Below, one piece after another: positions 9,498-59,035 of a stretch of DNA of 64,000 nucleotides. Origin of the DNA: an uncultured Fibrobacterota bacterium. GTDB taxonomy: Bacteria; Fibrobacterota; CAYVZU01. The stretch is taken from positions 3,695 through 67,694 of the forward strand of contig CAYVZU010000004.1 in the NCBI GenBank assembly GCA_964455935.1. The letters are read 5' to 3'. The stretch's first letter is position 1; each line of letters starts with the position of its first letter. Below the pieces are notes generated by a model. It was not told the origin of the DNA. It made no database searches and was given only the letters and a program-made list of their open reading frames with translations. The translations under genes were made by a program, and so were the position numbers.

Positions 9498-9501
9498 GAC
9501 A

Positions 9502-11300: not shown

Positions 11301-11309
11301 GGGAAACTC

Positions 11310-11789: not shown

Positions 11790-11804
11790 GATTCCTCCTT
11801 ACTT

Positions 11805-13291: not shown

Positions 13292-14340
13292 TTCCAGTAC
13301 GTCTTTTTGTAAAGGGATGACGACGGGTCACCTCCACCGTGGCAGTCCACATTCGAGCAACTCTTTTCAGCCGCGTTCCAGGCAAACATCGTATCATGCC
13401 CGGGGGTTGCCGCGTTTATGAAACGATTATAGAAGGAAACGTCCTTGGCGCCATTCATATGATGGGCCGTGTTGACCAGCGGAAGAGTATCTCCGTCAGG
13501 TGTTAAAAACACGGTCTGGCCATACCGCACGCGCGGTCCGAACTGCGTGGAGTCAATTGCACTGTCGTAGGCTACGGTTTGGAAGTGGCACTCGATGCAC
13601 TGCCGAATATCGCCGGAGGAATTGCGGGAGACATGAAGGGAATGCAGCCCGGCCATGGGCTTGTAGTCATGGCACGAATTGCATCGACCCAACTGGACCG
13701 ACTCCATCCGGAAGTCCGCTTGGCCGTTGCGGTGCAATGAGTCGATCAGCGAAAATGTATCCGCGCCGTTGAAACTGAATTCATCATGAACGAGCCAGGC
13801 AGCCCGGCGGGTTGTCACAAGGGTGTTGCTGGGTCTCTGAATGTAGGTGGCAACCAACGCGGAGTCTTTTTGAACTGCCCCGGCATGACAAGCAAAGCAG
13901 TTGCCCGCGAAGGATTTGGACATGGGCAGCAGAGAATCCCATTGGCACTTTGGCGAGGGAACCGTATGGCACATAGCGCAGTGCATGGGGCTTGCGGCGG
14001 TATCAAGCCGATCATTCGCATGGAGCCTTCCTGTCCGGGGTTTTTCTTCGCCGTCGATTACATCCGAAGCATCGAAATAGACGAAGTGGTTCGAGGCCGG
14101 ATCCAATGCACTGTCAAGCTGGATTGCATCCCAATGGCAGGCCACGCATTGCGAGTGAGTCGCTCCTTGAACCAGGACGGCCGTGTCTTTGCATGACACG
14201 CCGGGATAATGATGGCACTGATCACAGGAAACCTGTTTTGGCAGAGAACCCGAAACAGGTTCGAACCGCTCAATACAGCCCGCGGCCAAGGCAACGGCCA
14301 CTATGGGAAGCAAAGCGGGTCTGGCGCATCGCCTTTTCAT
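13288..14340 (-). CDS. Multiheme cytochrome c lipoprotein (6 CxxCH plus one CX4CH motif)
   Basis: A 350-aa protein with a lipoprotein signal (LAAGC). Heme-binding motifs are CDQCH, CVACH, CAMCH, CFACH, CNSCH, CIECH and CSNVDCH. Its start overlaps the upstream gene's stop (ATGA). Confidence 0.8.
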   Translation of the reverse strand: MKRRCARPALLPIVAVALAAGCIERFEPVSGSLPKQVSCDQCHHYPGVSCKDTAVLVQGATHSQCVACHWDAIQLDSALDPASNHFVYFDASDVIDGEEKPRTGRLHANDRLDTAASPMHCAMCHTVPSPKCQWDSLLPMSKSFAGNCFACHAGAVQKDSALVATYIQRPSNTLVTTRRAAWLVHDEFSFNGADTFSLIDSLHRNGQADFRMESVQLGRCNSCHDYKPMAGLHSLHVSRNSSGDIRQCIECHFQTVAYDSAIDSTQFGPRVRYGQTVFLTPDGDTLPLVNTAHHMNGAKDVSFYNRFINAATPGHDTMFAWNAAEKSCSNVDCHGGGDPSSSLYKKTYWK

Positions 14341-15134
14341 CTCTTCATCACAAGAACGGGTTGGCGGACAAGCTGACCTTGGAATTCCGCTATGGCCACG
14401 TAGACGCCGTCCTTCAGGCCTTGGACGGGAACACTCTTTTCCGCGGAGGAGACTGATCTTTCCAGATATCGCCGAGCGATTTTCCCCTGAAGATCACAGA
14501 TTGTCAGAGCCAATGGCGCCCCAATTGCGCCGGCGGGAAGCGAGAGCGTTAATACGCCGGATTTTGCCGCAATGCGAGCCTTAAGGCTGGGTTTCCCGGG
14601 GATGGTGTTTATTACGGACGAAGTCGTATCTGTGACTGTTACCGAAATATTGGTAAGAAATGTGGACCCGCTGTTGGCCGAGGAGTCGTATCCGGTGCGG
14701 GAATGGGAATGGCCGTCGATCACGATATTGCCGCGAACCAAGGGGCCCGGCGGGTCGATTGAATTGGAGTGGTCCTCGGTCATTTCGATACAGTACCGGT
14801 AGGTCCCGTTTGCGACGCGCTGTCCGTTCTGGTTAGTCAAGTTCCAGGTTGCTGAGATAGTCCCATGAACATTACGGGTGGCACCTGTCAGGCCGTCTAC
14901 ATCCATGCTGCTTGCGGCTTTCCAGGAGACCAAGTCGTTCTTGCGTTCGGCTGCCCATATCCCGATCGTTTTCACAAACTGGCCAGACGCGTTCTGCATC
15001 CAGACCGCAACCAGGTTCTTTGGGGCCTCGCGGCCGTCGTAGGTTCTTGTTGTCGCGGTGACCCGCAGGCTCCCCGCCAAAGCGGTTGAACTCAACATGC
15101 AGAGCCCCACCCCAATCAGGCAAAAGACTTTCAT
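14337..15134 (-). CDS. Secreted DUF2271-domain protein with T9SS-type C-terminal sorting domain
   Basis: The start is trimmed to MKVFCLIG, which has a signal peptide and RBS GGGGAGGG. The DUF2271 region reads VAVWMQNASGQFVKTIGIW...VDGLTGATR. The C-terminal approximately 70 aa (ICDLQGKIARRY...GLKDGVYVAIAEF) resemble Por/T9SS sorting domains. Confidence 0.55.
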   Translation of the reverse strand: MKVFCLIGVGLCMLSSTALAGSLRVTATTRTYDGREAPKNLVAVWMQNASGQFVKTIGIWAAERKNDLVSWKAASSMDVDGLTGATRNVHGTISATWNLTNQNGQRVANGTYRYCIEMTEDHSNSIDPPGPLVRGNIVIDGHSHSRTGYDSSANSGSTFLTNISVTVTDTTSSVINTIPGKPSLKARIAAKSGVLTLSLPAGAIGAPLALTICDLQGKIARRYLERSVSSAEKSVPVQGLKDGVYVAIAEFQGQLVRQPVLVMKR

Positions 15135-15156
15135 TTTCCCTCCCCGAAATTCCGGG

Positions 15157-18598: not shown

Positions 18599-20530
18599 AT
18601 GCGGCTGCTGCATTCTTGTACGCTGTTGATTGGATTGACAACAATGGTCTTTGCCGCGCCGCCGGCCGGCACGCCCGCTCCTTCCGCAAAACCTCCCAAG
18701 CCAACTCCCGTCAGCAGCAAACCCGCGACCGCTCCGGAGCCGCCTGCAAGCGTCAGCGCGGCCGTTCCGCGCATGACCTTTGATTTCAAAGACACGGACA
18801 TCCGCGATATCGCCCGTTCCATTTCCATTGCCTATGGTCTTAACATCCTGATCGACAAGGATATCACGGTCAAGGTGACCGTGCATTTGACCGACGTTCC
18901 GGTCATGGAAGGCCTGCGCACGATTCTTGAATCCAACGGCCTGGCCCTAGTTCGCGAAGGCGATCTCTATCGCATCACCAAGCCGGTGGACCGAGGCAGC
19001 GCGGCGATCGATGCCAAGCGCGACACCATCAGTTTCAATATCAGCAACGTGGAAGTCAACGACTTCATCCGCGACATTTCAAGCAAAACGGGGATCAACA
19101 TCATCGCGGAAAAGAATGTCACCGGCCGGGTTTCCGGGTCGCTGCGCAATGTGGATGTGGAAGACGGGATCCGGGCTTTGCTGGAAGCCAACGGGTTTAC
19201 GATGCAGTACCGGGGCGAAATCCTGGTGGTGGGCATGCCATCCGAGGATGCCAAACGAAGGCCCGACCGGGAGGCCCGGCGGCTCGACGTGAGAGTAAAA
19301 GACAAGAAGGTGACCCTCGATCTCAAGGGCGCGGACCTGGGCGATGTATTAAAAGAGATCGCCGACCAGGGCAAGCTCGACATGATCACCTACGGAGCGG
19401 TCCGGGGCGAGGTCAACGCCAAATTGAAGGAGATGCCCATCGAGCATGCGGTCGCTCTCCTGGTTTCGGGGACGCAATACACCTTTGCCATTCGCGAAGA
19501 CATCTTGCTCATCGGCGACCGCAATGTCACCACCCCCTCCGGCCAGGCCTTGAGCATTGCCGAACTGGTTCACGTGAAACACATCAAAGCCGAGGGCCTC
19601 CCCAACCTTCTGCCCAAGACCATTCCAACGGGAAACGTTCAAGTCATTAAGGAGCAGAATGCAGTTTTAGTGACCGGTACCACGGACATCATTGCCCAAG
19701 TCAATGAATTCATTCGGCAAATCGACATTCCAACGCCGCAGATCATGATTGAAGCGGTCATTGTCGAATATGGGCGAGACCAGGGTCGCGAAGTGGGCGT
19801 ATCGGCCAGGTCGGGCCGCGGAGCCGACAGCCTGGAAATGCTCCTTCCCAGCATTGCTTACGGGGTCGGCGCCAGAACCCTCAATCCACGGCTGCCATCG
19901 GATATTGCGGGATTTAAATTCGGGACCGTAGGATTTCTGCCGGACGATTTTGTGATTCGGCTTCACGCATTGGAGCGCGACAAGCGCGCCAAAATTTTGG
20001 CGCAACCGCGCATTGCCACTCTTAACGGCAACAAGGCCTCCATCCATGTCGGCACAACGAGCTATTTCCGCCTGGCCGGCGGCACAACGACCGACCCCAT
20101 CACTCGTTTCCAAACCATCCAGTCCGGGATTACGCTCAACATTACGCCCTGGATTTCCAAAAGCGGGCAGGTCACGGCCGAAATCAGCCCCGAGGTCTCC
20201 AATACCACCGGCATCAACGAGGAAGGATTCCCCGATATTTCCGTGCGCAATGTCTCCACCACGGTGCGGCTCAACGACGGCGAGACGATTATCCTGGGAG
20301 GACTGATTCGCTCCGAGGACAAGAGCACGATCGAGAAAGTCCCCATCCTGGGAGACATTCCTCTGTTGGGATGGCTGTTCCGGTCCAAGATCGCGGCGAA
20401 ATCATCCAGTGAGCTGGCCATTTACATCACCCCTCACATACTGAATAAGGAAGACATTGTGGATATTGATAAAGAGCTGGAACAATTCAAGACACGATCG
20501 AATTCCGGCAAAGTTCCCGAACTCCGCTAG
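18599..20530 (+). CDS. Secretin (GspD/PilQ family) of a type II secretion / type IV pilus-like system
   Basis: A 643-aa protein with a signal peptide and a Pro/Ala-rich linker. It has N0/STN-like domains (FDFKDTDIRDIARSISIAYGLNILID...) and a C-terminal secretin domain (ILGGLIRSEDKSTIEKVPILGDIPLLGWLFRS). Confidence 0.8.
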   Translation: MRLLHSCTLLIGLTTMVFAAPPAGTPAPSAKPPKPTPVSSKPATAPEPPASVSAAVPRMTFDFKDTDIRDIARSISIAYGLNILIDKDITVKVTVHLTDVPVMEGLRTILESNGLALVREGDLYRITKPVDRGSAAIDAKRDTISFNISNVEVNDFIRDISSKTGINIIAEKNVTGRVSGSLRNVDVEDGIRALLEANGFTMQYRGEILVVGMPSEDAKRRPDREARRLDVRVKDKKVTLDLKGADLGDVLKEIADQGKLDMITYGAVRGEVNAKLKEMPIEHAVALLVSGTQYTFAIREDILLIGDRNVTTPSGQALSIAELVHVKHIKAEGLPNLLPKTIPTGNVQVIKEQNAVLVTGTTDIIAQVNEFIRQIDIPTPQIMIEAVIVEYGRDQGREVGVSARSGRGADSLEMLLPSIAYGVGARTLNPRLPSDIAGFKFGTVGFLPDDFVIRLHALERDKRAKILAQPRIATLNGNKASIHVGTTSYFRLAGGTTTDPITRFQTIQSGITLNITPWISKSGQVTAEISPEVSNTTGINEEGFPDISVRNVSTTVRLNDGETIILGGLIRSEDKSTIEKVPILGDIPLLGWLFRSKIAAKSSSELAIYITPHILNKEDIVDIDKELEQFKTRSNSGKVPELR

Positions 20531-44502: not shown

Positions 44503-44615
44503 ATAAACTCCCGATTCACATGGGTGTTGTCAAACCAAAATATATTCTACTGCATGCAATCTAAAGGAACTCGGGACAACTGTGCCCGGTCTGTCTTTCT
44601 AGTATCTTCAGCACC

Positions 44616-46122: not shown

Positions 46123-47853
46123 TCACTCCAACGCGAACGGATAGGTATGCTGGAACGCCCCGGATTTCACCCGGACAAACAATGAGCCACGGGCCGGAAC
46201 TCCATCCGGCCACAGGATTCTCCGCTGATTATTGGCGGATTTGTCCGTGTGACGCCATAGCGTACGGCCCCGGGCATCCAGAACCGTCAGCACCACAGGT
46301 CCCGGGTTTGCGGGCGCAAAAGAAAAGACAACCCCCCCGCGTGTTCGAAATACCTTGAGTGAAGCCGCGGCCGCCTGGCTTTGCGGAATACTGCCGATCC
46401 TGGCGAGCTCGCCAATCCGGATCCTCAGCTCGAAGGTGTCCACATATCCGCCGAATTCGAAGCGGATGCGCAGTGTATCCATGCCGGGCTTGAAGGGCGC
46501 TGGTCCTCCGATCAGCATGTTTCCGATCATGTTCACGCTCCAGCTGAGTGTGTTGATCAAGGAGAACGAAGCCTGGCCGGCATAGCCGGCATTGTTGTAG
46601 GTCAGGATGTAGTTGAAGGTTCCCTGGGGTGGCACAAAAACGGTATCCGGGGAAGTGACGAATGGCACGCCTGTGATTGTGACGGGATCCGATTCATCGC
46701 TGATTACCGGCCCCGCACTGTACCCGGAAATCTTGATCCAGCATGGCGAACCCGCGGAACCGGGTGCATTCCAATTATAAGAGCCGCTTGCCGCCTCGAC
46801 GCCGGCGATCACTTGCCATATTGTGTGATTCACGCTATAAAACAACGAGCATGCGGCAAAGACCCCCTGGCTGGTCCAGCGGATTGTTTGCTGGGATCTG
46901 GCGGGCCAGCTTTGCCCGGCACCGGGTTCCGTGATTGTCAGGCTTCGCTGCACCACGGGTTGCGCCAAAGCAAAAACAGCCGACGTGGCCGAATCCAGGT
47001 TTCCGGCCGCATCATAGGCAATCACGCGTATTTTGCATTGGGTCGATGGCCCTGTTGCGGGTGTGGTCCACGTATAGGAGCCGCTCCACAAACTTGTGGG
47101 GGCCACCGAGGTGTCCGCAATCCCCGTCCAGGTGGCGCCGTTGTCTTTGGAAAGGCGCAGAATAAAACGCGCCACGCCCACGTTATCGGTGGCCGACCAG
47201 GTCAGGGTTTGCGCAGTGGACAGGTTCCACGATGTGGTGCCATCGGCTTTGGGCGAGGAAATCCCGGTGATAGCGGGTCTGGTGGCATCTCCCGCCGAGG
47301 AGAGCACGCATACAAGTTTGGGCCGGCTGGCTACAGTCGCATATTCCCGCGAGCGATATTGAGCATACAGATTGCCCGTTGCATCCTTGACCTGAATTGT
47401 GAGTTTTTTATCTCCGGCACTTTCCCGCAGGACAATGGGAGTCAAATCGACCTCAATCGTTGGGACCAGCGTATCGATGGGCCAGGTGGCAAGCGTTTCG
47501 CTTGCGGCCGGCATTGTGTTCCATGTGATCGTGGTCTCGCTCCAGGAATCATTGCTTACGAACAGTGCCGTATGCGAACCGTTTTGACCCCACCAATACC
47601 TAGTGAGCTTAAGCTTGGCCGAGGTAATGGTTCCGCTCAAGCCGGAAAGATCGAACCGAAAGTATCCGATGTAGTTAAAGCCTGGCGCGCTCCTTTTAAT
47701 CAGTAGATATTGTTCGCCGCCAAAATTGGTGTCGGCTCTTGCCCCGTCGTTGACAAAAGCATCCGCCTCGGCCACGATCTCGGTCTGAGACAAGGCTGCG
47801 CACGGCGACAATAGAAGGCTTATCAGTATGGGATAACACTTAATGAGTTTCAT
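46123..47853 (-). CDS. Secreted multidomain protein (N-terminal carbohydrate-binding-like domain, Ig/FN3-like repeats) with T9SS-type C-terminal sorting domain
   Basis: The start is MKLIKCYPILISLLLSPCAA (signal peptide). The protein has beta-rich repeats. The C-terminus (RILWPDGVPARGSLFVRVKSGAFQHTYPFAL) is Por/T9SS-like. Confidence 0.5.
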   Translation of the reverse strand: MKLIKCYPILISLLLSPCAALSQTEIVAEADAFVNDGARADTNFGGEQYLLIKRSAPGFNYIGYFRFDLSGLSGTITSAKLKLTRYWWGQNGSHTALFVSNDSWSETTITWNTMPAASETLATWPIDTLVPTIEVDLTPIVLRESAGDKKLTIQVKDATGNLYAQYRSREYATVASRPKLVCVLSSAGDATRPAITGISSPKADGTTSWNLSTAQTLTWSATDNVGVARFILRLSKDNGATWTGIADTSVAPTSLWSGSYTWTTPATGPSTQCKIRVIAYDAAGNLDSATSAVFALAQPVVQRSLTITEPGAGQSWPARSQQTIRWTSQGVFAACSLFYSVNHTIWQVIAGVEAASGSYNWNAPGSAGSPCWIKISGYSAGPVISDESDPVTITGVPFVTSPDTVFVPPQGTFNYILTYNNAGYAGQASFSLINTLSWSVNMIGNMLIGGPAPFKPGMDTLRIRFEFGGYVDTFELRIRIGELARIGSIPQSQAAAASLKVFRTRGGVVFSFAPANPGPVVLTVLDARGRTLWRHTDKSANNQRRILWPDGVPARGSLFVRVKSGAFQHTYPFALE

Positions 47854-48028
47854 TTTGCACCTCACTTGCCCCATTTGAACGATTAACCCTCGTCCTCAGA
47901 TTCTTGCGGGTCCCTATTAATGAAATCTACAAAGAATGAGGGAAATAGTCAAAGCGATCCACCGCAATGGCGAAATATTTTTTTGAGCTGAGCGCGCAGC
48001 GGAGGCGGATGCTGATGCGTCTTGGCGG

Positions 48029-49717
48029 CTATTCGAACAGCACAACCCTCAGAAGCTCTTCGATCGAGGTGATCCCTTCCCGCACCTTAGCCAAGCCGTG
48101 ATCGGATAGCTTCATCATGCCGCCGGCCAGAGCGGCTTCCCGAATGCGATGCTCGGGTTCATTGCGCGTAATCAGGTCGCGCACAGTCGCGTCAATTTTT
48201 AAAAATTCGAAAACGCCGGTACGGCCTTTAAAGCCCGTGTTATTGCAGTTCTTGCAGCCCCGGCCGTAAAAGGACGGCGGCACGGGCGTTTCGCCCAGCA
48301 CCATCTTGTAGCGAAAAAGGACCTCCTCGCAGGGATGATACTCTTCTTTGCACTCTGGACAGATCACGCGCACCAGGCGCTGGGCCAGCACGCCCAGCAC
48401 GGCCGAGGCAATCAGGAAAGGCGCAATGCCCAGATCGCGAAGCCGCGTGATCGCCGAGATAGAGTCGTTCGTGTGCAGGGTCGAAAAGACCAGGTGTCCT
48501 GTCTGCGACGATTGCAGAGCGATCTGGGCGGTTTCGGGATCGCGGATCTCGCCCACCAGAATGACATCGGGGTCCTGGCGCAGAATCGAACGCAGCGTGT
48601 CTGCGAATGTGAGCCCGGCCTTGTCGTTGATCTGAACCTGGTTGATGCCGGGTAGCTTGTATTCGATCGGGTCCTCGATGGTCGTGATGTTGATGGCCTT
48701 GGCCTTGATTCGGTTGAGGCAGGCGAAAATGGTGGACGATTTGCCCGATCCAGTGGGGCCTGTTACAAACAGCATTCCCTGGGGTTTGTTGATCAGCTCG
48801 TTGAGCCATTCGAGATCGCGCCCCTCCAGGCCCAGCGGCTCCAACTGAAGCAGCGCCTCGGTATGGCGCAGAATGCGGATCACCGTCTTTTCCCCATGGT
48901 GGGTGGGCAGCGTCGAGACGCGCAAATCCACTTCTTCACCGGCCACCATGCGTTTGATCCGGCCATCCTGGGGAATCCGCTTCTCGGCGATATCCAGATT
49001 GGCCAGGATCTTGACCCGCGACGTCAGCGGGCTCTGCATCCATTCGGGCAGGTCCATCATGTCGAGCAGCATCCCATCAATCCGGTAGCGGATGTGGAGC
49101 GAGTTCTCATGGGGCTCCAGATGAATGTCGCTGGCACCCTTGGCCACCGCCTCATCCAGAACCAGATTGACCATGCGCACTACCGGCTCGGCCTCCGTTT
49201 CCCGGCGCAGTTTCTCGACCTGCGAGGCGCCAGGATCAGCCCGTCCGAATTCCTTCAAGTTCCGCGCAATGCTGTTGGCGTCTTCGCTCAGCCGGCTTAC
49301 CGTGCCATAGCAGCGTTCGATGGAACCCAGAATATCGGTCTCGGTCGCGATGCGGCGGTTTACGCGGCATTGGGTGAGAAACTCGATTTCGGCCACCAGT
49401 TCCATATCGTGGGGGTCGGCCACCGCCAGATCGAGCAGGGCCGATTCGCGCAAAAGAGGAAAACACAACCGCTTTTCGGCGATGCGGCGCGGGATGATCT
49501 TGTCGGGCGCCTCGACCACAAAATCCGCGATGCGCGCGAACGGGAGGGCGTATTGCTCGGCCAGGGCGCGGTAGAGGTCTTCTTCCGAAATTCTCCCGGA
49601 CAGCACCAGGACGCGGCCTATGGGCCGTCGCGTCCGGGCCGCCTCTTCCGCGGCCGATGCAATCTCGGCCTCGGACAGGCTCAACTCGCGGCTCAGGATT
49701 TTTCCGATTTTTTCCAT
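48029..49717 (-). CDS. gspE: Type II secretion / type IV pilus assembly ATPase GspE/PilB
   Basis: A T2SSE_N domain is followed by Walker A (GPTGSGKSS), Asp/His boxes and a tetracysteine motif (CPECK...CKNC). Confidence 0.85.
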   Translation of the reverse strand: MEKIGKILSRELSLSEAEIASAAEEAARTRRPIGRVLVLSGRISEEDLYRALAEQYALPFARIADFVVEAPDKIIPRRIAEKRLCFPLLRESALLDLAVADPHDMELVAEIEFLTQCRVNRRIATETDILGSIERCYGTVSRLSEDANSIARNLKEFGRADPGASQVEKLRRETEAEPVVRMVNLVLDEAVAKGASDIHLEPHENSLHIRYRIDGMLLDMMDLPEWMQSPLTSRVKILANLDIAEKRIPQDGRIKRMVAGEEVDLRVSTLPTHHGEKTVIRILRHTEALLQLEPLGLEGRDLEWLNELINKPQGMLFVTGPTGSGKSSTIFACLNRIKAKAINITTIEDPIEYKLPGINQVQINDKAGLTFADTLRSILRQDPDVILVGEIRDPETAQIALQSSQTGHLVFSTLHTNDSISAITRLRDLGIAPFLIASAVLGVLAQRLVRVICPECKEEYHPCEEVLFRYKMVLGETPVPPSFYGRGCKNCNNTGFKGRTGVFEFLKIDATVRDLITRNEPEHRIREAALAGGMMKLSDHGLAKVREGITSIEELLRVVLFE

Positions 49718-49720
49718 GAC

Positions 49721-50920
49721 TCAGCCAAGGCCCTGTGTGATCTCGAACATGGGAAGATACATGGCGATTAAAACCGCGGCAACCGCAATGCCCATCAGCA
49801 CGATCAATACCGGCTCGATCAGCGAAGTGACCGTACCCAGGGCCGTGTCAACCTCGACTTCATAGTAATCGGAAATTCGGGTCAGCATCTCGGCCAATCC
49901 GCCTGTGCGCTCTCCCACCGAGACCATCTGCACGACCATGGCCGGAAACAGGCCGGCCCGCGCCAGTCGTGACGAGATGGTGTTTCCGGCCTTGACAGCT
50001 TCGAGAGTTTGGAGCAAGGCGGCTTCCACCGCGCCATTGCCCGCGGTTTCGGCCGTGATCTCGAGGGCTGCGGGCAGCGGAACGCCGCCTGTGAGAAGCG
50101 CGCCCAGCGTGCGCGAGAATCGCGCAATGGCGCTTTTGCGGGCCAGGTCGCCCAGAACCGGCAAGCGCAGAAGTAGCGTGTCAAGCTGGAGCCGAAACGC
50201 CGGGCTGCGCCGGTACGATAGAACAAACCAGATCAGGATTCCGGCAAACGATGCCAATGCAGGCATCCAGAACCGGCGCACAATTTCGCTTGCCTGGATC
50301 ACAAGCCGGGTGGAGGCGGGCAGGGCCGCACCCAGATCCGTGAGCATTGATGCGAAGGTTGGAACGACAAAGGTCATTAGCGCGGCCAGCGCGCCCGCGG
50401 TCACTAGCAGAACGACGGCCGGATAGGCCAGCGCGCCGCGAATGCGGCGCTGCAGGTTGGCCTGGCGCTCCTGGTAGTCGGCCAGCCGTTTGAGAATGTC
50501 GCCCAACATTCCACCGGCTTCTCCGGCTCGAACCATGGCGCAGTAGAGCCGGTTGAATATGCGGGGGTGCTGCGAAAGTGCTTCGGCCAGCGCGCCGCCG
50601 CCCTGTACATCCACCGAGACCTTGGCCACCGCCTCGCGAAGAGGGCGGTTTTCGACCTGTCCGGATATTGTGTCGAGACAGGCCACCATGGGCAGCCCGG
50701 CTGCGGTCATAGCGGAAAACTGCCGGGTAAACCGCGACAGCTCGCGAATCCCCACGCCGCTTGAGAGATTCAGAGTTAAAGTAGATACAGGCGCGATCTT
50801 CTCCAAACGAATTCGCCGACGCTGAAGAAGCTCCATGGCTTCCTCCCGCGAACGCGCTTCGATCTCGCCCTGCACCGCCTTGCCGTCGAAAAGAATCCCG
50901 GAGTATCTGAACTTGGCCAT
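49721..50920 (-). CDS. gspF: Type II secretion / type IV pilus platform protein GspF/PilC
   Basis: A 400-aa protein of two T2SSF repeats with three TMs. The start is trimmed to MAKFRYSGI. It ends 3 nt upstream of gspE. Confidence 0.8.
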   Translation of the reverse strand: MAKFRYSGILFDGKAVQGEIEARSREEAMELLQRRRIRLEKIAPVSTLTLNLSSGVGIRELSRFTRQFSAMTAAGLPMVACLDTISGQVENRPLREAVAKVSVDVQGGGALAEALSQHPRIFNRLYCAMVRAGEAGGMLGDILKRLADYQERQANLQRRIRGALAYPAVVLLVTAGALAALMTFVVPTFASMLTDLGAALPASTRLVIQASEIVRRFWMPALASFAGILIWFVLSYRRSPAFRLQLDTLLLRLPVLGDLARKSAIARFSRTLGALLTGGVPLPAALEITAETAGNGAVEAALLQTLEAVKAGNTISSRLARAGLFPAMVVQMVSVGERTGGLAEMLTRISDYYEVEVDTALGTVTSLIEPVLIVLMGIAVAAVLIAMYLPMFEITQGLG

Positions 50921-51211
50921 ATTCAGGAGATCCCTTTTGATTGATGAAAAGTAAAGTATTAGATTGGGGCGCGTATTTTCAATCACGCCGGCAGAATGGA
51001 TATTTGATCAACTGGTAAAATTTGTTGCCGCACAAGTTCGGGCTTGCTGTGTAGATTGGAGGAAAATACGCTTTGAAACCCTCACAAGCGATATGGGCAA
51101 ATCGCGGTCCGGCCCTTTGCAGCAAATGGCCTCTTAACCAAATGGGTTCGCGAAGGCGGAATAAAACAGAAGGGAAAAAGCCACTGGGCAATTATTGCCA
51201 ACGATGCATTT

Positions 51212-52738
51212 TCATTTCAATTGCAGATAAAATATTCCTGAAAGCGCACTAGGTAAAAGTACTGTTTGCATGCCGCTGCTTCCGGTTTTGCGCCGGTATT
51301 GCCAAACTTTTTTGCCCGAAACATCATAGACGGTCATTTTGGCATAACCATCATCCAGCTCCATTGCATTCTCTCTGCCTCCCACCGCCAATATCCATTG
51401 GCCTACCATTCCATGCGTAATTTTGCTTTGCGCGATTTTCGTAACAATCCCTGTAGATAGGGTCGTTGCGGATGCTTCGTTCGAATAGCCCGATGCCCCC
51501 AAATCACCAAGCGCATATACCCTGTAGTAAAACGTATGCGATGCTCCCAATCCCGTGCTGCTGAATGTTGTAACATTGGGTCCCACGCTGCCGCATTGGG
51601 CCCAAGTGGAGGTTGGATTAATTTTTCTTTCAATTACAAAACCTGTTTCGTTATTGGAGCTTTCGGTCCATGTTAAATTAATTTGCACGGAAGAAACGGC
51701 AATGGCGTTCAGGTTGGATGGCGTTGAAGGAATTGTATCGCCCTGCCCCGCTCCAAACACCGGATAGCCTACTGCATTGGTTGCGCCGCTGGCGTCAACC
51801 ACATATAAGAAAAGCTTATCGGATGTACCGAACGTTCCCCTGTTAATTTTGCAAACCGCGCGGCTGCCGGCCCATTCGCTTGGGATTTGAATTTCTCTTT
51901 TTGTGCATGACAACCATGACGCCTTATTGCCAAGTTCAACCCGGGCCAATGTATTATCGATATAAACATCGCCTATGTAAATAGTACGAGTTCCGCTTTC
52001 GTTATAATAAGGTAGAAAAACTTGGTTATAAACGGTAGAAGATGCGCCATCGGCCAAAGTTTTTACTGCGGTATTATAAAAAAGCCGCACTGCGTTGCGC
52101 CAAGCGCCCACGGTGCCATTTGCCACATTTTTCGTTCCGATTGTCGACCACAAATCATCTCGCGTCCACTGTCCTTCGGGCGCGCCATTGGCCATATTTA
52201 GAAGGTTTGTTTCCACTGAACCGGCAATAACGTACCAATAGTTCGGGTTGAAAGCGGTTAGGCCCGCAAGAGGAAAACTATGAACATCGTTATCGCTGCC
52301 AATTCTTCCCATTTTGGTATGGTCGCCTGTCCCGCCCGGAACAACATAGTAATGATAGGATAAAAAAATCTTTGTTTGATTTCCCAAAACCCCTAATGTC
52401 GTTCTAGTATGGCACGCAGCATTCGTTTTTAATACCTGCGCCGCCGATAATGCGTTTTGGCCATAATGCATTGCATTGGAATAAGTCCCAGCACAGGCGC
52501 TTTCCACGGTCCAGGGAGACCCCGTGCCGCTGCTTAAGGGTTGTCCGGATGTGCCGCGAGAAAAGTCATCCCATAACAGGGGAGCCGCTGGGGTTTTAAT
52601 GCCGAAATTGGATCCTGTGATGGTAATGAACTGAGTGTTCATAATGGCGCCCGTTATATTTGGAACGGCTGCAGCCATTTGGACCGAAAAGGCAGACATC
52701 ATTGCGGCAAGAAGCGAAATAGAGCTAATGAGTTTCAT
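51212..52738 (-). CDS. Secreted protein: IPT/TIG-like N-terminal domain, jelly-roll (ConA/glycanase-like) central domain, FN3 domain, T9SS-type C-terminal domain (paralog 1)
   Basis: It has a signal peptide (MKLISSISLLAAMMSAFSV) and the segments ITITGSNFG, DHTKMGRIGSDNDVH and TRTIYIGDVYIDNTLARVEL. An FN3 domain (NLTWTESSNNETGFVIER) follows. The C-terminus (KVWQYRRKTGSSGMQTVLLPSALSGIFYLQLK) is T9SS-like. Confidence 0.5.
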   Translation of the reverse strand: MKLISSISLLAAMMSAFSVQMAAAVPNITGAIMNTQFITITGSNFGIKTPAAPLLWDDFSRGTSGQPLSSGTGSPWTVESACAGTYSNAMHYGQNALSAAQVLKTNAACHTRTTLGVLGNQTKIFLSYHYYVVPGGTGDHTKMGRIGSDNDVHSFPLAGLTAFNPNYWYVIAGSVETNLLNMANGAPEGQWTRDDLWSTIGTKNVANGTVGAWRNAVRLFYNTAVKTLADGASSTVYNQVFLPYYNESGTRTIYIGDVYIDNTLARVELGNKASWLSCTKREIQIPSEWAGSRAVCKINRGTFGTSDKLFLYVVDASGATNAVGYPVFGAGQGDTIPSTPSNLNAIAVSSVQINLTWTESSNNETGFVIERKINPTSTWAQCGSVGPNVTTFSSTGLGASHTFYYRVYALGDLGASGYSNEASATTLSTGIVTKIAQSKITHGMVGQWILAVGGRENAMELDDGYAKMTVYDVSGKKVWQYRRKTGSSGMQTVLLPSALSGIFYLQLK

Positions 52739-52758
52739 AATTGATTTTCCTACCTGTT

Positions 52759-55092
52759 TTAATCGAGGCTTAGCATTCGTTTGGCCCAATGCGATTTTCC
52801 GCCATGAATTCGGCAAATGTAGCTCCCTTTGGCAAGTGAAATGCCATGATTATCTTTCCCATCCCATATAATATCATGGGTGCCTGGCTTTTGGCGTCCC
52901 GCATTCAATGTCCGCAACGTCTTGCCCGAAGCGTTCATGATGCTGATGCGGATGTCACCTTCCGCGGCCAGGGTATAGGTTATTTTATTTCTCGCAAAAG
53001 ACGGGTGTGCAAAAACAATGGTATCCCTTGTTTTTTCGTTATGTGGCATGCTGGGGACCTCCACTACCGATTTGGACATGATTAACTGATTCGGAGTTCC
53101 CGTCGCCGCAAAGGCTGTGCGTGTCCATGCGAACTTGGTTGTGTCGCTGGAGGCAATCACGCATGTCCGAGGCGCCAGCAAACCCGCGACCTGCGGGATG
53201 TCGCAATATTTCAACACGCTCATTAAAACGGGCGCCCTGGTTTTTTCCTCCGCATAAATATGACTATATGGAACGTTGCTCAGGTATACACCTTTTATAT
53301 CCATTTCGTTTAATGCGGCCACATATAACGAAATCACCGCGCCTTTGCCTGATCCGCAAATTCGTATTTCCGATGCATTTATTCTTTCATCCGCTTTCAG
53401 CACTTCCACGGCTCTAAGCAAATCCACCGCACCCATGGCTACCGGTGAGCGGCCAATGCAATTCGCCGAACGCAAGGTGTACCATTCCTCGGTCTGCGAG
53501 CCCGCGGATCGCAATGTATCGCTGATGGCTCCACGCTGTTTTACCTCCAATACTGCAATCCCGCTTGCGATGAATTGAGAGAGAGTTGCTTCCATTTGCA
53601 TATTCACAGTTGCCAGTTCATCTATTGCATAGATATATACGGGGTACGGTGCTGTTCCTACTTTAGGTATGCGCAAACGCGCAAAGCCCCGGTAATTTGC
53701 TTCGCACTGGTACGTTAATCCTTCCCGTGTATAGGTTCCCTGATCCGAAGCCGCTTCGGTTTGTATTACCTGCAAAGCGCGGGACGAAAAGCCGGCATCG
53801 GTAAAATGGTAAAAACAATATTGCTTTAGATTATTTACCACGCTTTTCTTATAGGCAGCCAAATCGGAAGCGCTGGACAATATGGGCGCAACGGTCACAG
53901 GATTAAATTCGGTCTCAAGGAAGGCATTGCGCTGATCGGCCGGAAACCCAGCGGGGAAACAAACGAGTTGCGATGAAGTAAAAAGACTTTCCGGCATGAC
54001 GGGCGTAAGTTGGCTATTATCATTTTTAAAATTCCAATTAAACCATTCATATTGATCCGCTAGCATTTCGGGTGTTTCGCAATGGGGAACCGCATATTCT
54101 TTGGGCGCTAAATTCTGCGAAGCGCCGCAAAGAGAATAAATTCTTGTGTATCCTGCGGTAAATTCCTCATAGCCTGTTTTGGGGTAATACATGTCCTGGG
54201 TGCCATTTTGGTACATGACCGGTCTTGGAGCAATACAGCCAAACGCTTCTTGCATGGATAATTTAAAGATATCCGGAAAATAATCGCAGTCACAATCTTC
54301 GTTTATCGTCTGCTCATTTATCAGTTGATGCTGCGAACATGTGCCGCAGGTGGGGGCGGCGCAGGCAACTCGGTCATCCACCGCCGGCAGGAACCAACTC
54401 ATGCGGCCGCCGCCGCTTATGCCTGCTACGCCAAGTTTTGTTGTATCCACTTCGGGTCTGGTGCAAAGATAATCGAGCGCACGAATGGCATTCCATGTTT
54501 CGGGCCCGGCCGGGGTGAAGCCTCGAGAATACAAATCGAATTTGCCGTAATTATACACGCCATGGTGCAGGTCGACCCCAAATTCGTTGCTGTATAGATT
54601 GTCCATAACAAGGCATACATAGCCGTGCCGCGCAAACCAGATACCGTGGTGCTGGTATTTGATTTTGGATCCACCGGCGCGCGGAGTATGGCCGCACACA
54701 TAGAGTATTGTCGGCACTTGTGCCGTAAGATTGCGCGGTACGAATAAATTGCCGGTGATATAAACCTTGGGCTTCGATTCAAACACCAGCTTCTCTACGA
54801 TAAATGGATATGCGGCATTATCGATTGTCCCTGTTATCTGAGCATTTAACGGCGTCCTTGCGGGCATTGGGTCCAGTCCCAGCATATATTTCAGCTTCCG
54901 CTGCATGTCGGAACGCTGGGCCTGCCATTGTGCCAGCGTGGCGCATTGCGAAAAGCTATTTGCCGACATGGCATTTGATTCGGCCTTCAAATAATCTACA
55001 ATGTCAGGATATTTTACAATGGGTACTGCCATCGCATTGGTCTCCAAACAAAGAGCTGCATAAGTAAAAACATAAAGAAATTGGATTCGCAT
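52759..55092 (-). CDS. Secreted tandem alpha/beta-hydrolase (acetyl-xylan-esterase/glucuronoyl-esterase-like) with T9SS-type C-terminal domain
   Basis: A 777-aa protein with a signal peptide. It has two esterase-like modules, with GISGGG (GxSxG) in the first. The C-terminus (GSYICRIHGGKSHWAKRMLSLD) is T9SS-like. Confidence 0.55.
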   Translation of the reverse strand: MRIQFLYVFTYAALCLETNAMAVPIVKYPDIVDYLKAESNAMSANSFSQCATLAQWQAQRSDMQRKLKYMLGLDPMPARTPLNAQITGTIDNAAYPFIVEKLVFESKPKVYITGNLFVPRNLTAQVPTILYVCGHTPRAGGSKIKYQHHGIWFARHGYVCLVMDNLYSNEFGVDLHHGVYNYGKFDLYSRGFTPAGPETWNAIRALDYLCTRPEVDTTKLGVAGISGGGRMSWFLPAVDDRVACAAPTCGTCSQHQLINEQTINEDCDCDYFPDIFKLSMQEAFGCIAPRPVMYQNGTQDMYYPKTGYEEFTAGYTRIYSLCGASQNLAPKEYAVPHCETPEMLADQYEWFNWNFKNDNSQLTPVMPESLFTSSQLVCFPAGFPADQRNAFLETEFNPVTVAPILSSASDLAAYKKSVVNNLKQYCFYHFTDAGFSSRALQVIQTEAASDQGTYTREGLTYQCEANYRGFARLRIPKVGTAPYPVYIYAIDELATVNMQMEATLSQFIASGIAVLEVKQRGAISDTLRSAGSQTEEWYTLRSANCIGRSPVAMGAVDLLRAVEVLKADERINASEIRICGSGKGAVISLYVAALNEMDIKGVYLSNVPYSHIYAEEKTRAPVLMSVLKYCDIPQVAGLLAPRTCVIASSDTTKFAWTRTAFAATGTPNQLIMSKSVVEVPSMPHNEKTRDTIVFAHPSFARNKITYTLAAEGDIRISIMNASGKTLRTLNAGRQKPGTHDIIWDGKDNHGISLAKGSYICRIHGGKSHWAKRMLSLD

Positions 55093-55319
55093 CGCCCTAA
55101 TACACTCATGTGTTGTGCATTATTAATTTTGACACTAACCCCGGTCTATTCACAAACAATTCTACTGCCGGTCCACAATTATCCACCATCTACGCCCGTT
55201 TTCGGTCAGCGCATCCTCGACGTACTTTTCAAGTACGCCTCCGGGTTCCCGGACCTTCAATTGGCCATATCTGAAGGGCACTTGCGGACCTCGCTGCGAA
55301 AGTTTATGAATGGATCGGG

Positions 55320-56612
55320 TTACCGCATCACGGAAAAGCTTTTTGCAATTTTATGCCTGTTTTGCTCCAGCACAGCCAGCCGTATTCCGGTCGAAACCGC
55401 TGCAATTCTAATGGTGTTATATCCTGCCGCTGCAGCCCTGCCGACATACTGGAATATCTTCTCGCCCGTAACGTTAAAAATGGATACTGAGAAATTCCCC
55501 TGCTCCGGAAGATAAAGGCTGAAATCGGCTCCGTGTTCAGAAACACCTTTGCATGAAATTGCGAGCAGGCTGGATGAGCCAGCGTGATATGCGGGTGCGG
55601 TAATTCCAGTGGTATATGTGGCCCCTGTTGCGTTTGCCGCCCCGCTGGCATCCACCACATATATGTATGGTTTGCTGGAAGCGTTTCCGGTATTGGCTTT
55701 GCATACTATCCGGCCGTTGGCCCATTCGGTGGGGGCCTGAATATCGCACTTTCCGCGATTTGCCCAAGTGGAACCGGGGCATAGCTCTACGCGGGCAAGC
55801 GTATTATCGATGTATACGTCATCAACATAAATTGTTCTGGTGCCATCTTCGGCGTAATAAGGAAGGAAAAATTGGTTATATGGTTGCCTTAAATTGTTAT
55901 TATTTATCGTTGTGCTGAAATATTTTTGAGCACCATCACGCCATACACCCACTGCTCCGTTGGCTTGGCCGGTAGCGCCCTGCATGGTCCACAGGTCGTC
56001 CCGCACCCATGCATCTACAACATCCGGAACCTCCTGCCATAGGACTTTCTCACCATACCGGTCGGAAAATGCATAATAATAGCAAGGGCCAAACGCCGTA
56101 TAGCCCATACTAGGCCAGCAGTGGACATCATTATTACAGCCAATTCGGCCCATTTTGACATGATCCCCAGCGCCACCGCCAAGGGCATAAAATCTATAGG
56201 ATGCAAATATCTGGTTTTGGCTTCCCAGTATTCCGCTACGGGTACGGGACCAGCAGGGAGCACCCGTCAGTAGCAATTGTTTGGCCGATTTGGTTCCGGA
56301 ATAGGCCTTATCGGTGGAAAATATTTCGGTCTCTTTGCTACCTCTTGTACATTCAATCTGGGTCTCCCATACATTGCTGGTGCTAAGAAGCGTGCCGGCC
56401 GTACCGCCTTCAAAATTCTCCCACACCAATGGTGCGGCAGGTGATTTTGTTCCAAACCCGGCGCCCAAGATGGTAATTGTCTGATTGGCGAAAGAGACGC
56501 CACCGATAACTGGGGCTGCAATGGAAATTTGAAACGTAATCCCTAATAATAATCCAATAAGAACGAATAGCTCAATGAATCCAACGCCTAAAAGCTTCTT
56601 TGCTATTTCCAT
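55320..56612 (-). CDS. Secreted protein, paralog 2 of 51212-52738 (IPT/TIG-like plus jelly-roll domain plus T9SS-type C-terminus)
   Basis: It shares ITILGAGFG, DHVKMGRIGCNNDVH and TRTIYVDDVYIDNTLARVEL with paralog 1 and lacks the FN3 domain. The C-terminus (IFNVTGEKIFQY...GYNTIRI) is T9SS-like. Confidence 0.5.
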   Translation of the reverse strand: MEIAKKLLGVGFIELFVLIGLLLGITFQISIAAPVIGGVSFANQTITILGAGFGTKSPAAPLVWENFEGGTAGTLLSTSNVWETQIECTRGSKETEIFSTDKAYSGTKSAKQLLLTGAPCWSRTRSGILGSQNQIFASYRFYALGGGAGDHVKMGRIGCNNDVHCWPSMGYTAFGPCYYYAFSDRYGEKVLWQEVPDVVDAWVRDDLWTMQGATGQANGAVGVWRDGAQKYFSTTINNNNLRQPYNQFFLPYYAEDGTRTIYVDDVYIDNTLARVELCPGSTWANRGKCDIQAPTEWANGRIVCKANTGNASSKPYIYVVDASGAANATGATYTTGITAPAYHAGSSSLLAISCKGVSEHGADFSLYLPEQGNFSVSIFNVTGEKIFQYVGRAAAAGYNTIRIAAVSTGIRLAVLEQNRHKIAKSFSVMR

Positions 56613-56761
56613 GCAAGGCCCCTTTTCGAGTTAACCGATTTAAATTCAGTCCTCACATTTTCAAACCGTCGACTGGTAACTCCACGGTTGAAAATATACC
56701 GGCTCCAAGGTTATATTGCTATACAAAAATGATGTTTTGATTATACAAATTCCAAAGCCCA

Positions 56762-59035
56762 ATGAATCAAAGCCATTACCATCTTTTGGTAAGCAAAGCG
56801 ATCGCTACTATAAGGGCAAATATCGCAGGTCCTGTTTCGGTTTCCCAAATTGCCAAGCAACTTCATTATTCAGAAGTCCAATTTCGCACTATTTTCAAAA
56901 AAACAACAGGCGAAGGAATTTTGGAGCATATTCTCCGCTTGCGGCTCGACAAGGCTAAAGAGCTCTTGCGCAATACTGATTTGGCCATCACAGATATTGC
57001 AATGGATGTTGGTTTTGGAAGCCACACGCATTTTACGCGAACGTTCAGTAAAAGGGCGGGACTCACGCCTTCCGCATTTCGGATCTTGTCGCGCAAGCAA
57101 ATGGGGGCGGAGCTTGATACGAACAAAAACGGAAAGCAGAATAGCCGGATAATATCCAACATTCCGGCCGAGATGGAGCTGGGGCGTCTATGGCAGCCGC
57201 TTTGCGGGACATGGATCCATAAGGAGGGGATTGTTTGGGGAACTGCGGAAGAAGATACGGTCTTGCGCTACGCACGCCGGCTCCCCGAAAATTTCGCCAT
57301 TCAGCTCGAACTGCGATTTACTCCAACAAAAGAATTGGGCCAAACGGAATTCCATCTTCGGCTGGAAGATAACGAAAACCAACAAACGTATTGCCTGTTC
57401 AAACTGGGAATCAATGATAATACATCTGGAACATTGGCCCGCACAGGTCTTGCAATGCAGGGGAACTTCGGCGCCGTTTTCAAGCCAAACCATTGGCAGA
57501 AGGTGCGCGTGGAATTGAAAGACGACCATTTGCAGCTCCGCTTGGATGATGAAATGCTGTTCCGATTCCGAGATCCATTCCCGGCTCCGTATTTGGGCCG
57601 CTGTAAATTGTCGTTTGGAAGCTGGCGCAGCAATATTCAAATCCGCAACATTTCGATTGAGGATTTGGGTTTCCTTCCGCTTATACGCACAGTGCGGCAG
57701 GGAGATTCGCTTTTTAATTTGCAGCTATATGATCAGGCCAGAGACTTCTATATGCGGCTTCTGGAATCGGACGTGTCTTTTGCCGACCAAATGGAATTGC
57801 ATTATAAGATTGCCATGTGCTATGTCCGCCAGGGCCTTTATGCCGAAGCCCGTCCCAGGCTCTTGAAGGTTGCGACCCTACCTCTGCGCGACTTCTGGGG
57901 GCAGCATGCGCGATTGGCCCTTTTGGAGGTCGGTTGGAAAGAAGGAAGGCATGAGAATTTGGTCCTGGAAATGAAGCAGCTCTTCGGCCACAAACCGCTT
58001 TGCGACGGCATCCGCCAAATGGCCAAGGAGGCAGCAGACCAATACAATTTAAACGGTTTTTACACGCGAGCGTTGAAGCTGCAGCAAATGCTCAGCGAGG
58101 TGGAGAATAAGAGCGTACTATGTCGCCAAAATCATCTGGATCTGGCCGAGGCTCTAATCACGCTGAACCATTTTGAGCAGGCGGAAAAAGAGCTATTGCG
58201 CCTGGCCGAATCGACGGCTGGACTTAACCAGATCCATACCTATACCCTTCTAACCCTTGCAGACGTTCAGCTTTATCAGGGAAAAACCAGCGAGTGCATG
58301 CAAACACTGGAGCTTGCGCGCAGCAGAACGCAAAATCAAACAATGCTGGCGCATTGTGATATTCATTTTGCCGGGGTACTGCGCTCGCAAGAGCGTATGC
58401 CTGAATCCATAGCACTTCTGGAGGACGTTCCGCGAAAATACCCAAATGTGGGCCGGCTGGCCCAATACGCAGAGCTTATGGCTTCACTCACATGGTGCGC
58501 CTTGGAAAATTGCGACGAAGCACTTAGGATATTGGAGCGAATTAAACAAAAATCACCGGATCATCCCAACCTTGCGGCCGGAAGCGGAAGCAAGTTTCTT
58601 TTCGTCCCTCATCTTGTGAAAGGCGATTTTCTTCAAGCCGCAGAAATAATCCACCGCGATGCGCAACATAACGATGATCGGGCGGCCCTTCATGCTCTGC
58701 AGGCGATCCGGGCAGGCATAGTATTCGAACTTGCCGGAAACGTGAAGGCCGCAAGAAAAATCTGGTCCAATGTTACGCGGCGCTATCCTTCCTCTGCAGT
58801 TCCATTTCTCGGCATGCTCGCGCATAATCTGCTTGGTGGTAGCGTGGACCAATTGGAGTCCATGCCCTATCCGATGTTCAACCGTTCCGAGATATTTTAT
58901 CTTGTCGCGCTGCTCGAAGAAAAGCGGGGCGAAAAGAGCGCCGCGGATCTTTTGGAGATGAGCTGGAAAGAAGACCGCTCACTAATATGGCCAGCATACT
59001 TGGCCAAACAAAGGCTGCAAAAACTCCGACCGTGA
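56762..59035 (+). CDS. Transcriptional regulator with N-terminal AraC-type HTH and about 650-aa C-terminal helical-repeat (TPR-like) domain
   Basis: Residues 1-110 (IAKQLHYSEVQFRTIFKKTTG...DIAMDVGFGSHTHFTRTFSKRAGLTPSAFR) are a classic AraC HTH pair. It is unusually placed at the N-terminus. It is divergent from the secreted-protein block. Confidence 0.6.
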   Translation: MNQSHYHLLVSKAIATIRANIAGPVSVSQIAKQLHYSEVQFRTIFKKTTGEGILEHILRLRLDKAKELLRNTDLAITDIAMDVGFGSHTHFTRTFSKRAGLTPSAFRILSRKQMGAELDTNKNGKQNSRIISNIPAEMELGRLWQPLCGTWIHKEGIVWGTAEEDTVLRYARRLPENFAIQLELRFTPTKELGQTEFHLRLEDNENQQTYCLFKLGINDNTSGTLARTGLAMQGNFGAVFKPNHWQKVRVELKDDHLQLRLDDEMLFRFRDPFPAPYLGRCKLSFGSWRSNIQIRNISIEDLGFLPLIRTVRQGDSLFNLQLYDQARDFYMRLLESDVSFADQMELHYKIAMCYVRQGLYAEARPRLLKVATLPLRDFWGQHARLALLEVGWKEGRHENLVLEMKQLFGHKPLCDGIRQMAKEAADQYNLNGFYTRALKLQQMLSEVENKSVLCRQNHLDLAEALITLNHFEQAEKELLRLAESTAGLNQIHTYTLLTLADVQLYQGKTSECMQTLELARSRTQNQTMLAHCDIHFAGVLRSQERMPESIALLEDVPRKYPNVGRLAQYAELMASLTWCALENCDEALRILERIKQKSPDHPNLAAGSGSKFLFVPHLVKGDFLQAAEIIHRDAQHNDDRAALHALQAIRAGIVFELAGNVKAARKIWSNVTRRYPSSAVPFLGMLAHNLLGGSVDQLESMPYPMFNRSEIFYLVALLEEKRGEKSAADLLEMSWKEDRSLIWPAYLAKQRLQKLRP

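Follow-up and report, generated by a model that had tools for sequence, protein, structure and literature searches.

Type IX secretion systems (T9SS) and the C-terminal domain (CTD) signals of their substrates are regarded as a trait of the Fibrobacteres-Chlorobi-Bacteroidetes (FCB) superphylum (PMC11205867; a passage of PMC11285876). Type A CTDs such as those of RgpB from Porphyromonas gingivalis and RemZ from Flavobacterium johnsoniae lie at the extreme C-terminus of proteins with Sec signals, and T9SS-type CTDs have been proposed on enzymes of Fibrobacter succinogenes (BTD/Fpm-1, glycoside hydrolases of strain S85; Raut et al., 2019, PMC6851124). Non-canonical clusters resembling type II secretion systems (T2SS) coexist with the T9SS in Cytophaga hutchinsonii and other Bacteroidota (PMC5553014). 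Elements of both kinds are found in the 64-kb window analysed here (the whole stretch of DNA), which comes from an uncultured Fibrobacterota bacterium. A gspF-gspE gene pair, encoding the platform and ATPase of a secretion or pilus machine, lies at 46.1-56.6 kb among genes for four secreted proteins with T9SS-like tails, and a fifth protein of this kind, with a DUF2271 domain, is encoded near 14.3 kb. The arrangement is probably a juxtaposition of three independent units, in which the CTD-bearing cargo would be exported by a T9SS encoded elsewhere and gspEF would serve a secretin machine. Its components are divergent representatives of what is already known, namely cargo with T9SS-type CTDs, a T2SS-like or type IV pilus (T4P)-like machine, and a small acquired island for glycan degradation.

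The tails of the window resemble type A CTDs in their position at the extreme C-terminus of proteins with Sec signals, in a length of about 80 residues with an immunoglobulin (Ig)-like sandwich (seven strands in the model of the CBM96 tail), and in the apparently polysaccharide-active character of their cargo in an FCB bacterium. They differ from type A CTDs in scoring below the curated cut-offs, in lacking the PNPF motif and in the shortening of one tail. The likeness to BTD/Fpm-1, drawn without direct sequence comparison, lies in a Fibrobacterota-type host and in C-terminal tails on secreted carbohydrate-active enzymes; in both cases the T9SS is inferred from the tail alone, with no machinery identified (PMC6851124).

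Composition and gene order of the block

The genes of the block, the divergent regulator beside it and the fifth CTD protein are as follows, with the GC content at third codon positions (GC3) where determined.

55320..56612, minus strand: paralog 2, 430 amino acids; signal peptide, predicted polysaccharide lyase (PL)-like beta-jelly-roll domain, CTD at about 55323-55565; GC3 0.48
52759..55092, minus strand: esterase, 777 amino acids; signal peptide, AXE1/DLH/glucuronoyl-esterase-like alpha/beta hydrolase, weak AXE1-like second half, CTD at about 52762-53010; GC3 0.51
51212..52738, minus strand: paralog 1, 508 amino acids; signal peptide, predicted jelly-roll domain as in paralog 2, fn3, shortened CTD at about 51215-51343; GC3 0.46
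49721..50986, minus strand: gspF/pilC-type inner-membrane platform; two T2SSF domains, likely ATG start at 50920; GC3 0.72
48029..49717, minus strand: gspE/pilB-type assembly ATPase; N-terminal MshEN, T2SSE, tetracysteine motif; GC3 0.75
46123..47874, minus strand: CBM96/DNRLRE secreted protein, 583 amino acids; CTD at about 46126-46362; GC3 0.65
56762..59035, plus strand: AraC-family regulator with 3-keto-disaccharide-hydrolase-like domain and tetratricopeptide repeats (TPRs); divergent from paralog 2; GC3 0.55
14337..15134, minus strand: DUF2271 protein, 265 amino acids from MKV…; signal peptide, CTD at about 14340-14579; the window's fifth CTD protein

Six co-directional open reading frames (ORFs) thus run along the minus strand in the order paralog 2, esterase, paralog 1, gspF, gspE and CBM96 gene, confirming the gene order given in the initial annotation. 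The intergenic gaps in this direction are 227, 20, ∼291, 3 and 154 bp, and tight coupling is limited to esterase-paralog 1 (20 bp) and gspF-gspE (3 bp). The listed TTG start of paralog 1 (ORF 51212-52816) overlaps the esterase gene; the true start is likely the ATG at 52738, and the resulting 508-residue product is likewise called in an independent assembly.

GC3 values of 0.46-0.55 are found for paralog 1, the esterase, paralog 2 and the AraC-TPR regulator, as against 0.72-0.75 for gspF, gspE and mfd, 0.65 for the CBM96 gene and 0.57-0.73 for the other window genes checked. The low-GC genes form a continuous stretch of ∼7.8 kb (51212-59035) lodged between gspF and mfd. This island is defined by composition alone, and no tRNA, integrase or clear flanking direct repeat was found at its boundaries. 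Composition together with comparative gene order divides the block into three units: the low-GC island, the gspFE pair, which is native, and the CBM96 gene, native as well and of near-native composition. The description of gspEF as embedded in a block of secreted-protein genes therefore does not hold in the sense of a functional unit: the GC3 values set the island apart, and neither the island genes nor the CBM96 gene ever accompany gspE in relatives. The arrangement shows that genes lying side by side in one direction do not necessarily make up a system. A chimeric contig joined at the GC shift was rejected as an explanation, as independent assemblies span paralog 1-gspF, AraC-paralog 2-esterase and gspF-gspE-CBM96 and reproduce the junctions.

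The comparison of gene order rests on the closest relatives of GspE among 185,579 species genomes, which are 50-56% identical and belong to metagenome-assembled genomes (MAGs) classified as Fibrobacteres, Fibrobacteria or Chitinivibrionales. The loci of these best relatives also hold the best relatives of the window secretin. The best named UvrA matches (67-70%) are from KSB1, Calditrichaeota and Zixibacteria, and identical copies of the block proteins occur on groundwater-metagenome contigs (PRJNA292723; JGI 3300009296). On the strength of these matches, the organism is a deep-branching bacterium within the FCB superphylum, nearest to Fibrobacterota-type lineages and without a close described relative. 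The 83 gspE loci compared contain nothing homologous to either paralog, to the esterase, to the CBM96 protein or to the AraC regulator.

In the proposed scheme the first unit would be a compositionally foreign, acquired island of ∼7.8 kb comprising the AraC-TPR regulator, two PL20-like jelly-roll paralogs and a carbohydrate-esterase-type enzyme; the second would be the native gspF-gspE pair and the third the native CBM96 protein, all on the chromosome of a groundwater bacterium. Export of the five CTD proteins would proceed through Sec at the inner membrane and, at the outer membrane, through a T9SS whose genes lie beyond the window, the island would be under AraC-type control, and gspEF would energise a secretin/pseudopilin machine for an unrelated task, either the secretion of other substrates or the assembly of a pilus.

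The gspE-gspF pair and the secretin machine

A second cluster, on the plus strand at 18.6-25 kb, encodes the remaining recognisable parts of such a machine.

18599..20530, plus strand: secretin, the outer-membrane channel; N0/STN, Secretin_N and Secretin domains (Secretin 159.9 bits)
20546-21736, plus strand: GspL/PilMN-like protein, 396 amino acids; weak PilN match, 16.8 bits
21699-22643, plus strand: PilO/GspM-like protein; PilO 30.8 bits
22713-24077, plus strand: large GspK-like minor-pilin candidate, 454 amino acids
∼24074-24454 and ∼24451-25059, plus strand: two prepilin-type proteins; N_methyl 31.9 and 24.5 bits, motifs GFTLIE and GFALIE

The internal ATG codons of the prepilin genes at 24074 and 24451 overlap the neighbouring stop codons by 4 nt, and the starts given by the ORF finder (23909 and 24241) are probably wrong; read from the ATG at 24451, the second prepilin has a 30-residue leader.

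In 10 of 11 Fibrobacterota-type relatives an orthologue of the window secretin lies directly downstream of gspE (identity 39-45%; 33-45% in two relative loci cut off by a contig end). In the three relatives whose flanks extend far enough (L004, L007 and L052; 10-18 kb), gspE and the secretin gene are followed by genes for a ∼410-residue protein, a ∼183-residue protein, a PilO-like protein, a homologue of the window's 454-residue protein (∼480-500 residues) and small pilin-like ORFs, which is the same set and order as in the window's cluster. The secretin operon of the window has no gspE at its head; gspE lies 28 kb away and is paired with gspF. Because the gspE-secretin linkage is conserved in relatives, gspEF most likely powers the secretin machine at 18.6-25 kb, and on this point the initial annotation, which had suggested that cluster as one possibility for the pair, is strongly backed. 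The comparison further reveals a gene order common to the Fibrobacterota at large (gspE, secretin, PilMN-like, PilO-like, large minor pilin, prepilins), belonging to a type IV filament machine that has been little characterised. A conserved operon of the Fibrobacterota type is seen in loci L026, L029 and L042 as well, and in Fibrobacteria loci the order is permuted to large protein, pilins, gspE and secretin. The gspF gene, which abuts gspE in the window, never lies within 10 kb of gspE in the Fibrobacterota-type relatives.

The T2SS-like cluster of C. hutchinsonii (CHU_3191-3199; PMC5553014) likewise contains a secretin, an E ATPase, an F platform, pseudopilins and very divergent L/M/C-like proteins, is organised differently from the systems of Proteobacteria, and belongs to an FCB host that also uses a T9SS. 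In the window, by contrast, E and F are remote from the secretin operon and no GspG-like major pseudopilin is recognised; in the relatives of the window, gspE heads the secretin operon and gspF lies elsewhere.

The kind of machine was considered from the scores of its proteins against T2SS and pilus models. The gspF product contains two T2SSF domains (211.8 bits) and scores 376.9 bits with PilC (cut-off 700) and 374 with GspF (cut-off 424). The gspE product has T2SSE (441.6 bits) and MshEN (55.5 bits) domains and scores 585 bits with PilB (cut-off 675) and 582.5 with GspE (cut-off 630), and the secretin scores 254.7 bits with PilQ (cut-off 284) and 236.8 with GspD (cut-off 351). On these values gspEF encodes a GspE-type ATPase and a GspF-type platform at the superfamily level only.

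A machine in which gspEF, the secretin, the PilMN/O-like proteins and the prepilins build a type IV pilus for adhesion or DNA uptake, and not a protein-secreting T2SS, is a serious candidate, though one rated somewhat less likely than not. The Pil models score marginally above the Gsp models for all three proteins, HofQ and ComG models match too, a PilO and a weak PilN domain are present, MshEN is typical of ATPases of MSHA pili and T4P, and type IV pilins have been implicated in the adhesion of F. succinogenes to cellulose (PMC6851124). The window resembles the type IVa pilus machinery (PilB/PilC/PilQ/PilMNOP) and the MSHA ATPase MshE in these Pil scores, in the PilO and weak PilN domains and in MshEN with a near-threshold cyclic di-GMP (c-di-GMP) motif, but it has no retraction ATPase PilT/PilU, PilP, AMIN domain or obvious major pilin, and the scores fall below the equivalog or subfamily cut-offs of the Pil and Gsp models alike. 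Moreover, the 454-residue protein and the GspH-like and GspM-like matches in the secretin cluster suggest the pseudopilins of a T2SS, of which GspC, the major pseudopilin GspG and the prepilin peptidase GspO were not recognised within the window. The machine thus appears to be a type IV filament system of T2SS/T4P-like kind, and the sequence does not decide between the two. The MshEN domain at the N-terminus of GspE carries two copies of a motif of the c-di-GMP-binding type (…PIGRVLVLSGRISEEDLYRALAEQ…), for which the NCBIfam motif model gives 35 bits (cut-off 38). Regulation of the ATPase by c-di-GMP is possible.

C-terminal tails and their route of export

A profile built from the window's five tails and searched against 1.84 billion representative proteins retrieved 1409 proteins at E ≤ 1e-3. 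The match ends no more than 8 residues from the C-terminus in 102 of the 144 top matches with a domain call, and the retrieved tails display the classic pattern '…NYPNPFNP.T.I.Y.LP….V.L.IYD..G..V..L……G.H…WDG…….SGVYFYRL……..KKMLLLK'. TIGR04183 matches all 52 of the retrieved tails that were sampled at E ≤ 0.01 (best E 5.7e-14; one member 38.4 bits), and many of these tails also match the tail models of the T9SS-dependent protease, PorU and PorZ. A hidden Markov model (HMM) of external CTDs only, themselves chosen by means of the window profile, was searched against 3,736 ORFs, drawn from the window and the 83 fetched gspE loci, and matches the five window tails and a single other ORF. The independent E-values (iE) of the five tails range from 1e-16 to 9e-5 (esterase 1e-16, paralog 2 2e-12, DUF2271 protein 7e-7, CBM96 protein 6e-6).

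Features of the individual proteins are in keeping with these matches. Each of the five has an N-terminal hydrophobic leader, judged by inspection of the sequences, and a tail that ends 0-6 residues before the stop codon. Por_Secre_tail is among the few matches of each tail, and for all five it is the top match in at least one of the Pfam and NCBIfam libraries. The alignment shows the Gly-x-Tyr/Phe strand preserved in three tails out of five; four have a terminal alternating strand, which is basic in three of them. The esterase tail has a further match in the C-terminal region of PorU, a region that is a CTD in its own right. For the CBM96 tail, the least supported of the five, an AlphaFold2 (AF2) model (mean predicted local distance difference test score, pLDDT, 88) has seven beta-strands, which matches the 3+4 strand sandwich described for T9SS CTDs in a passage of PMC11285876. 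Taken together, the profile comparisons indicate that the five tails are remotely homologous to T9SS type A CTDs and belong to that superfamily as divergent members.

Several observations weigh against this assignment or against the export route built on it. The curated cut-offs are 23 bits for TIGR04183, 27 for PF18962 and 27 for FlgD_ig, and no tail passes either of the first two. Scores of the tails, scanned in isolation or within the whole proteins, are, with TIGR04183, 12.2-21.6 bits (paralog 1 21.6, esterase 20.6, CBM96 protein 16.1, DUF2271 protein 14.4-16.1) and those with PF18962 are 13.6-19.4 bits (paralog 2 18.2, DUF2271 protein 18.6-19.4), the CBM96 tail being unmatched. The PNPF motif, in the N-terminal part of the canonical CTD, is missing from all five tails. 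The close agreement in hhalign between the five-tail profile and the sampled retrieved tails (probability 99.3%, E 7.7e-21) is not fully independent, as the latter were picked with the former. Foldseek searches with the CBM96 tail model are led by generic Ig-like sandwiches, among them Ig domains of GH2 enzymes and DUF3244, with the RemZ CTD bound to the T9SS translocon (8gl8_D; target TM-score, TMt, 0.69) at rank 13 and the RgpB CTD (7pq4) at rank 16; this result is compatible with the CTD fold and not specific for it. The ORF of paralog 1 stops directly after 'GIFYLQLK', ∼15 residues short, so that the final strands are missing. No T9SS component was matched in any window ORF scanned with Pfam or NCBIfam, in line with what the initial annotation had stated, and the F. 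succinogenes study likewise infers its T9SS from tails alone and names no component of the machinery (PMC6851124). Four of the five CTD genes of the window flank gspEF, and the only other CTD match in the 83 loci is a 276-residue ORF at 253-1080 of L052, a Chitinivibrionales MAG, on the minus strand (iE 3e-10), immediately upstream of gspE and divergent from it. Finally, scans for sigma-70 promoters and intrinsic terminators across 45.9-57 kb barely exceeded shuffled expectation, the sigma-70 scan not covering FCB promoters, and the gaps gave no clue to operon structure. The search of the five-tail profile against PDB sequences gave S-layer matches only, all of them insignificant.

The sub-threshold scores and the missing motif could be explained if the tails were not secretion signals at all, being instead Ig-like (FlgD_ig-type) spacers, anchors or carbohydrate-binding modules on proteins that stay periplasmic or are released otherwise, for example in vesicles. 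The esterase tail scores best as FlgD_ig and clears its cut-off (46.7 bits; 42-47 across scans), the predicted fold is matched by generic Ig sandwiches, the tail of paralog 1 is shortened in a gene that is intact, and a tail of this kind is absent from most of the paralog family. Nevertheless, all five tails stand at the extreme C-terminus, the tails of their nearest relatives are mostly C-terminal too, every sampled relative matches TIGR04183, and the characteristic strands are retained in most of the tails; spacer or binding modules are accordingly considered unlikely. The initial annotation had described T9SS-like tails on the four secreted proteins of the block and on the DUF2271 protein, and had proposed scoring them against TIGR04183 and PF18962. 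Taken by itself that scoring speaks against the description, as none of the tails reaches either cut-off, but it is overturned by homology at the profile level, and what survives is remote homology to sorting domains.

The clustering of CTD genes around gspFE suggests a different possibility, namely that the secretin-based, T2SS-like machine driven by the neighbouring gspEF exports the CTD proteins, their tail being read by a type II-like system. The flanking of gspFE by most of the window's CTD genes, the CTD gene beside gspE on the opposite strand in L052, and the lack of a T9SS gene in the window are all as this possibility would have it, and T2SS substrates are also exported by Sec. However, three of the four flanking CTD genes belong to the compositionally foreign island, the adjacency is absent from the gspE loci of the other ten relatives, and the tails share homology with genuine TIGR04183 domains in an FCB lineage where a T9SS is expected. 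To our knowledge, T2SS substrates do not use a linear C-terminal domain as a signal. A CTD gene beside gspE is seen in two cases in twelve lineages, a frequency that may be no higher than chance. The proximity of gspEF to CTD cargo is best explained as lineage-specific and incidental, and export of this cargo by the T2SS-like machine is judged very improbable. The most far-reaching form of the proposal, in which a lineage without a canonical T9SS exports its CTD proteins through a GspEF-powered secretin machine, the clustering reflects functional coupling and the CTD is read by more than one translocon, is hardly to be expected at all. Were CTD cargo to leave through a T2SS-like machine, the understanding of secretion signals would change.

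Export of the CTD proteins by a T9SS encoded elsewhere is most likely because the organism belongs to the FCB superphylum, in which a T9SS is expected. Literature searches on T9SS in KSB1, Calditrichaeota and Zixibacteria, and in papers on termite Fibrobacterota and on Cloacimonadota, brought up nothing usable. The suggestion that in this lineage the tails are handled differently has nothing that points to it, T9SS-type CTDs being expected in an FCB lineage. If the ordinary reading is true, the tails are divergent, sub-threshold type A sorting domains from an FCB lineage not yet described, and the current CTD models, which miss all five, could be widened.

For paralog 1, the stop codon and the paralog 1-gspF junction are identical in an independent contig (L086), and the missing end of the CTD is not found by read-through or in alternative frames past the stop. 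A frameshift or assembly error was rejected on these grounds. Either the tail of paralog 1 would be non-functional or a shortened CTD would be tolerated.

Cargo of the island and neighbouring genes

Paralogs 1 and 2 are 45% identical and share similarity at the DNA level as well. Paralog 2 has no Pfam or NCBIfam match, and the family is rare, with 25 homologues in 5.8 billion clusters, most of them without a CTD. Homologues include proteins of Geomonas and Gammaproteobacteria, and the invariant motifs are GSGFG.KSPAAP… and DDVYIDNTLARVE. The AF2 model of paralog 2 (pLDDT 68) predicts, with moderate confidence, a beta-jelly-roll core, for which Foldseek ranks the PL20 glucuronan lyase 2zzj and TtX122 highest. 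The fold is like that of the PL20 endo-beta-1,4-glucuronan lyase, TtX122 of Teredinibacter turnerae and the PL14/PL36 alginate lyases (E ∼1e-7, TMt 0.54-0.58), but identity is only 13-14% and, given the modest pLDDT and the lack of a Pfam match, the likeness is one of fold and not of family membership. The paralogs are secreted and adjoin a gene for a glucuronoyl- or acetyl-esterase-like enzyme, a context in keeping with the PL20-type comparison, and may represent a family of polysaccharide lyases or polysaccharide-binding proteins not yet described.

Residues 101-264 of the esterase match AXE1 (36.4 bits), DLH (34 bits) and the fungal glucuronoyl esterase family GCE_fung (33 bits). The enzyme had been called a tandem esterase. 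Its second half reaches only 16.9 bits with AXE1 (cut-off 21), BLASTP finds no similarity between the two halves, and the tandem arrangement is only weakly borne out. The jelly-roll fold match together with the glucuronoyl/acetyl-esterase-like enzyme suggests an acidic or esterified polysaccharide as the target of the island.

The AraC-family regulator (757 amino acids; Pfam HTH_18 79.3 bits, 3keto-disac_hyd 36.7 bits, and TPRs) is of unusual architecture, with an N-terminal AraC-type helix-turn-helix followed by a 3-keto-disaccharide-hydrolase/DUF1080-like domain and a long TPR region. From its divergent arrangement alone, it probably regulates the three secreted proteins of the island.

The remaining two CTD proteins carry a CBM96 domain (112.7 bits) and a DUF2271 domain (48.5 bits), respectively. 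The DUF2271 protein is an unusual CTD cargo in a neighbourhood of redox and cytochrome-maturation genes: the minus-strand run at 8697-15287 includes, besides it, multihaem cytochrome c7-like, DUF3570, thioredoxin/ResA-like, DsbD-like, ResB and CcsA proteins. The remainder of the window consists of chromosomal housekeeping genes, including those for UvrA, Mfd, glutamate dehydrogenase, Trk, cytochrome c biogenesis, Nuo/formate-dehydrogenase-like subunits and glycosyltransferases. Next to the CBM96 gene, at 44616-46073, lies a 485-residue ORF in which a GH130 (beta-mannoside phosphorylase-like) domain spans only residues 258-485; the N-terminal ∼250 residues have no confident match, and an ORF on the opposite strand (44547-45287) overlaps this part. 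The start of the GH130 ORF may be mis-set, or its N-terminal domain may be of an unrecognised kind.

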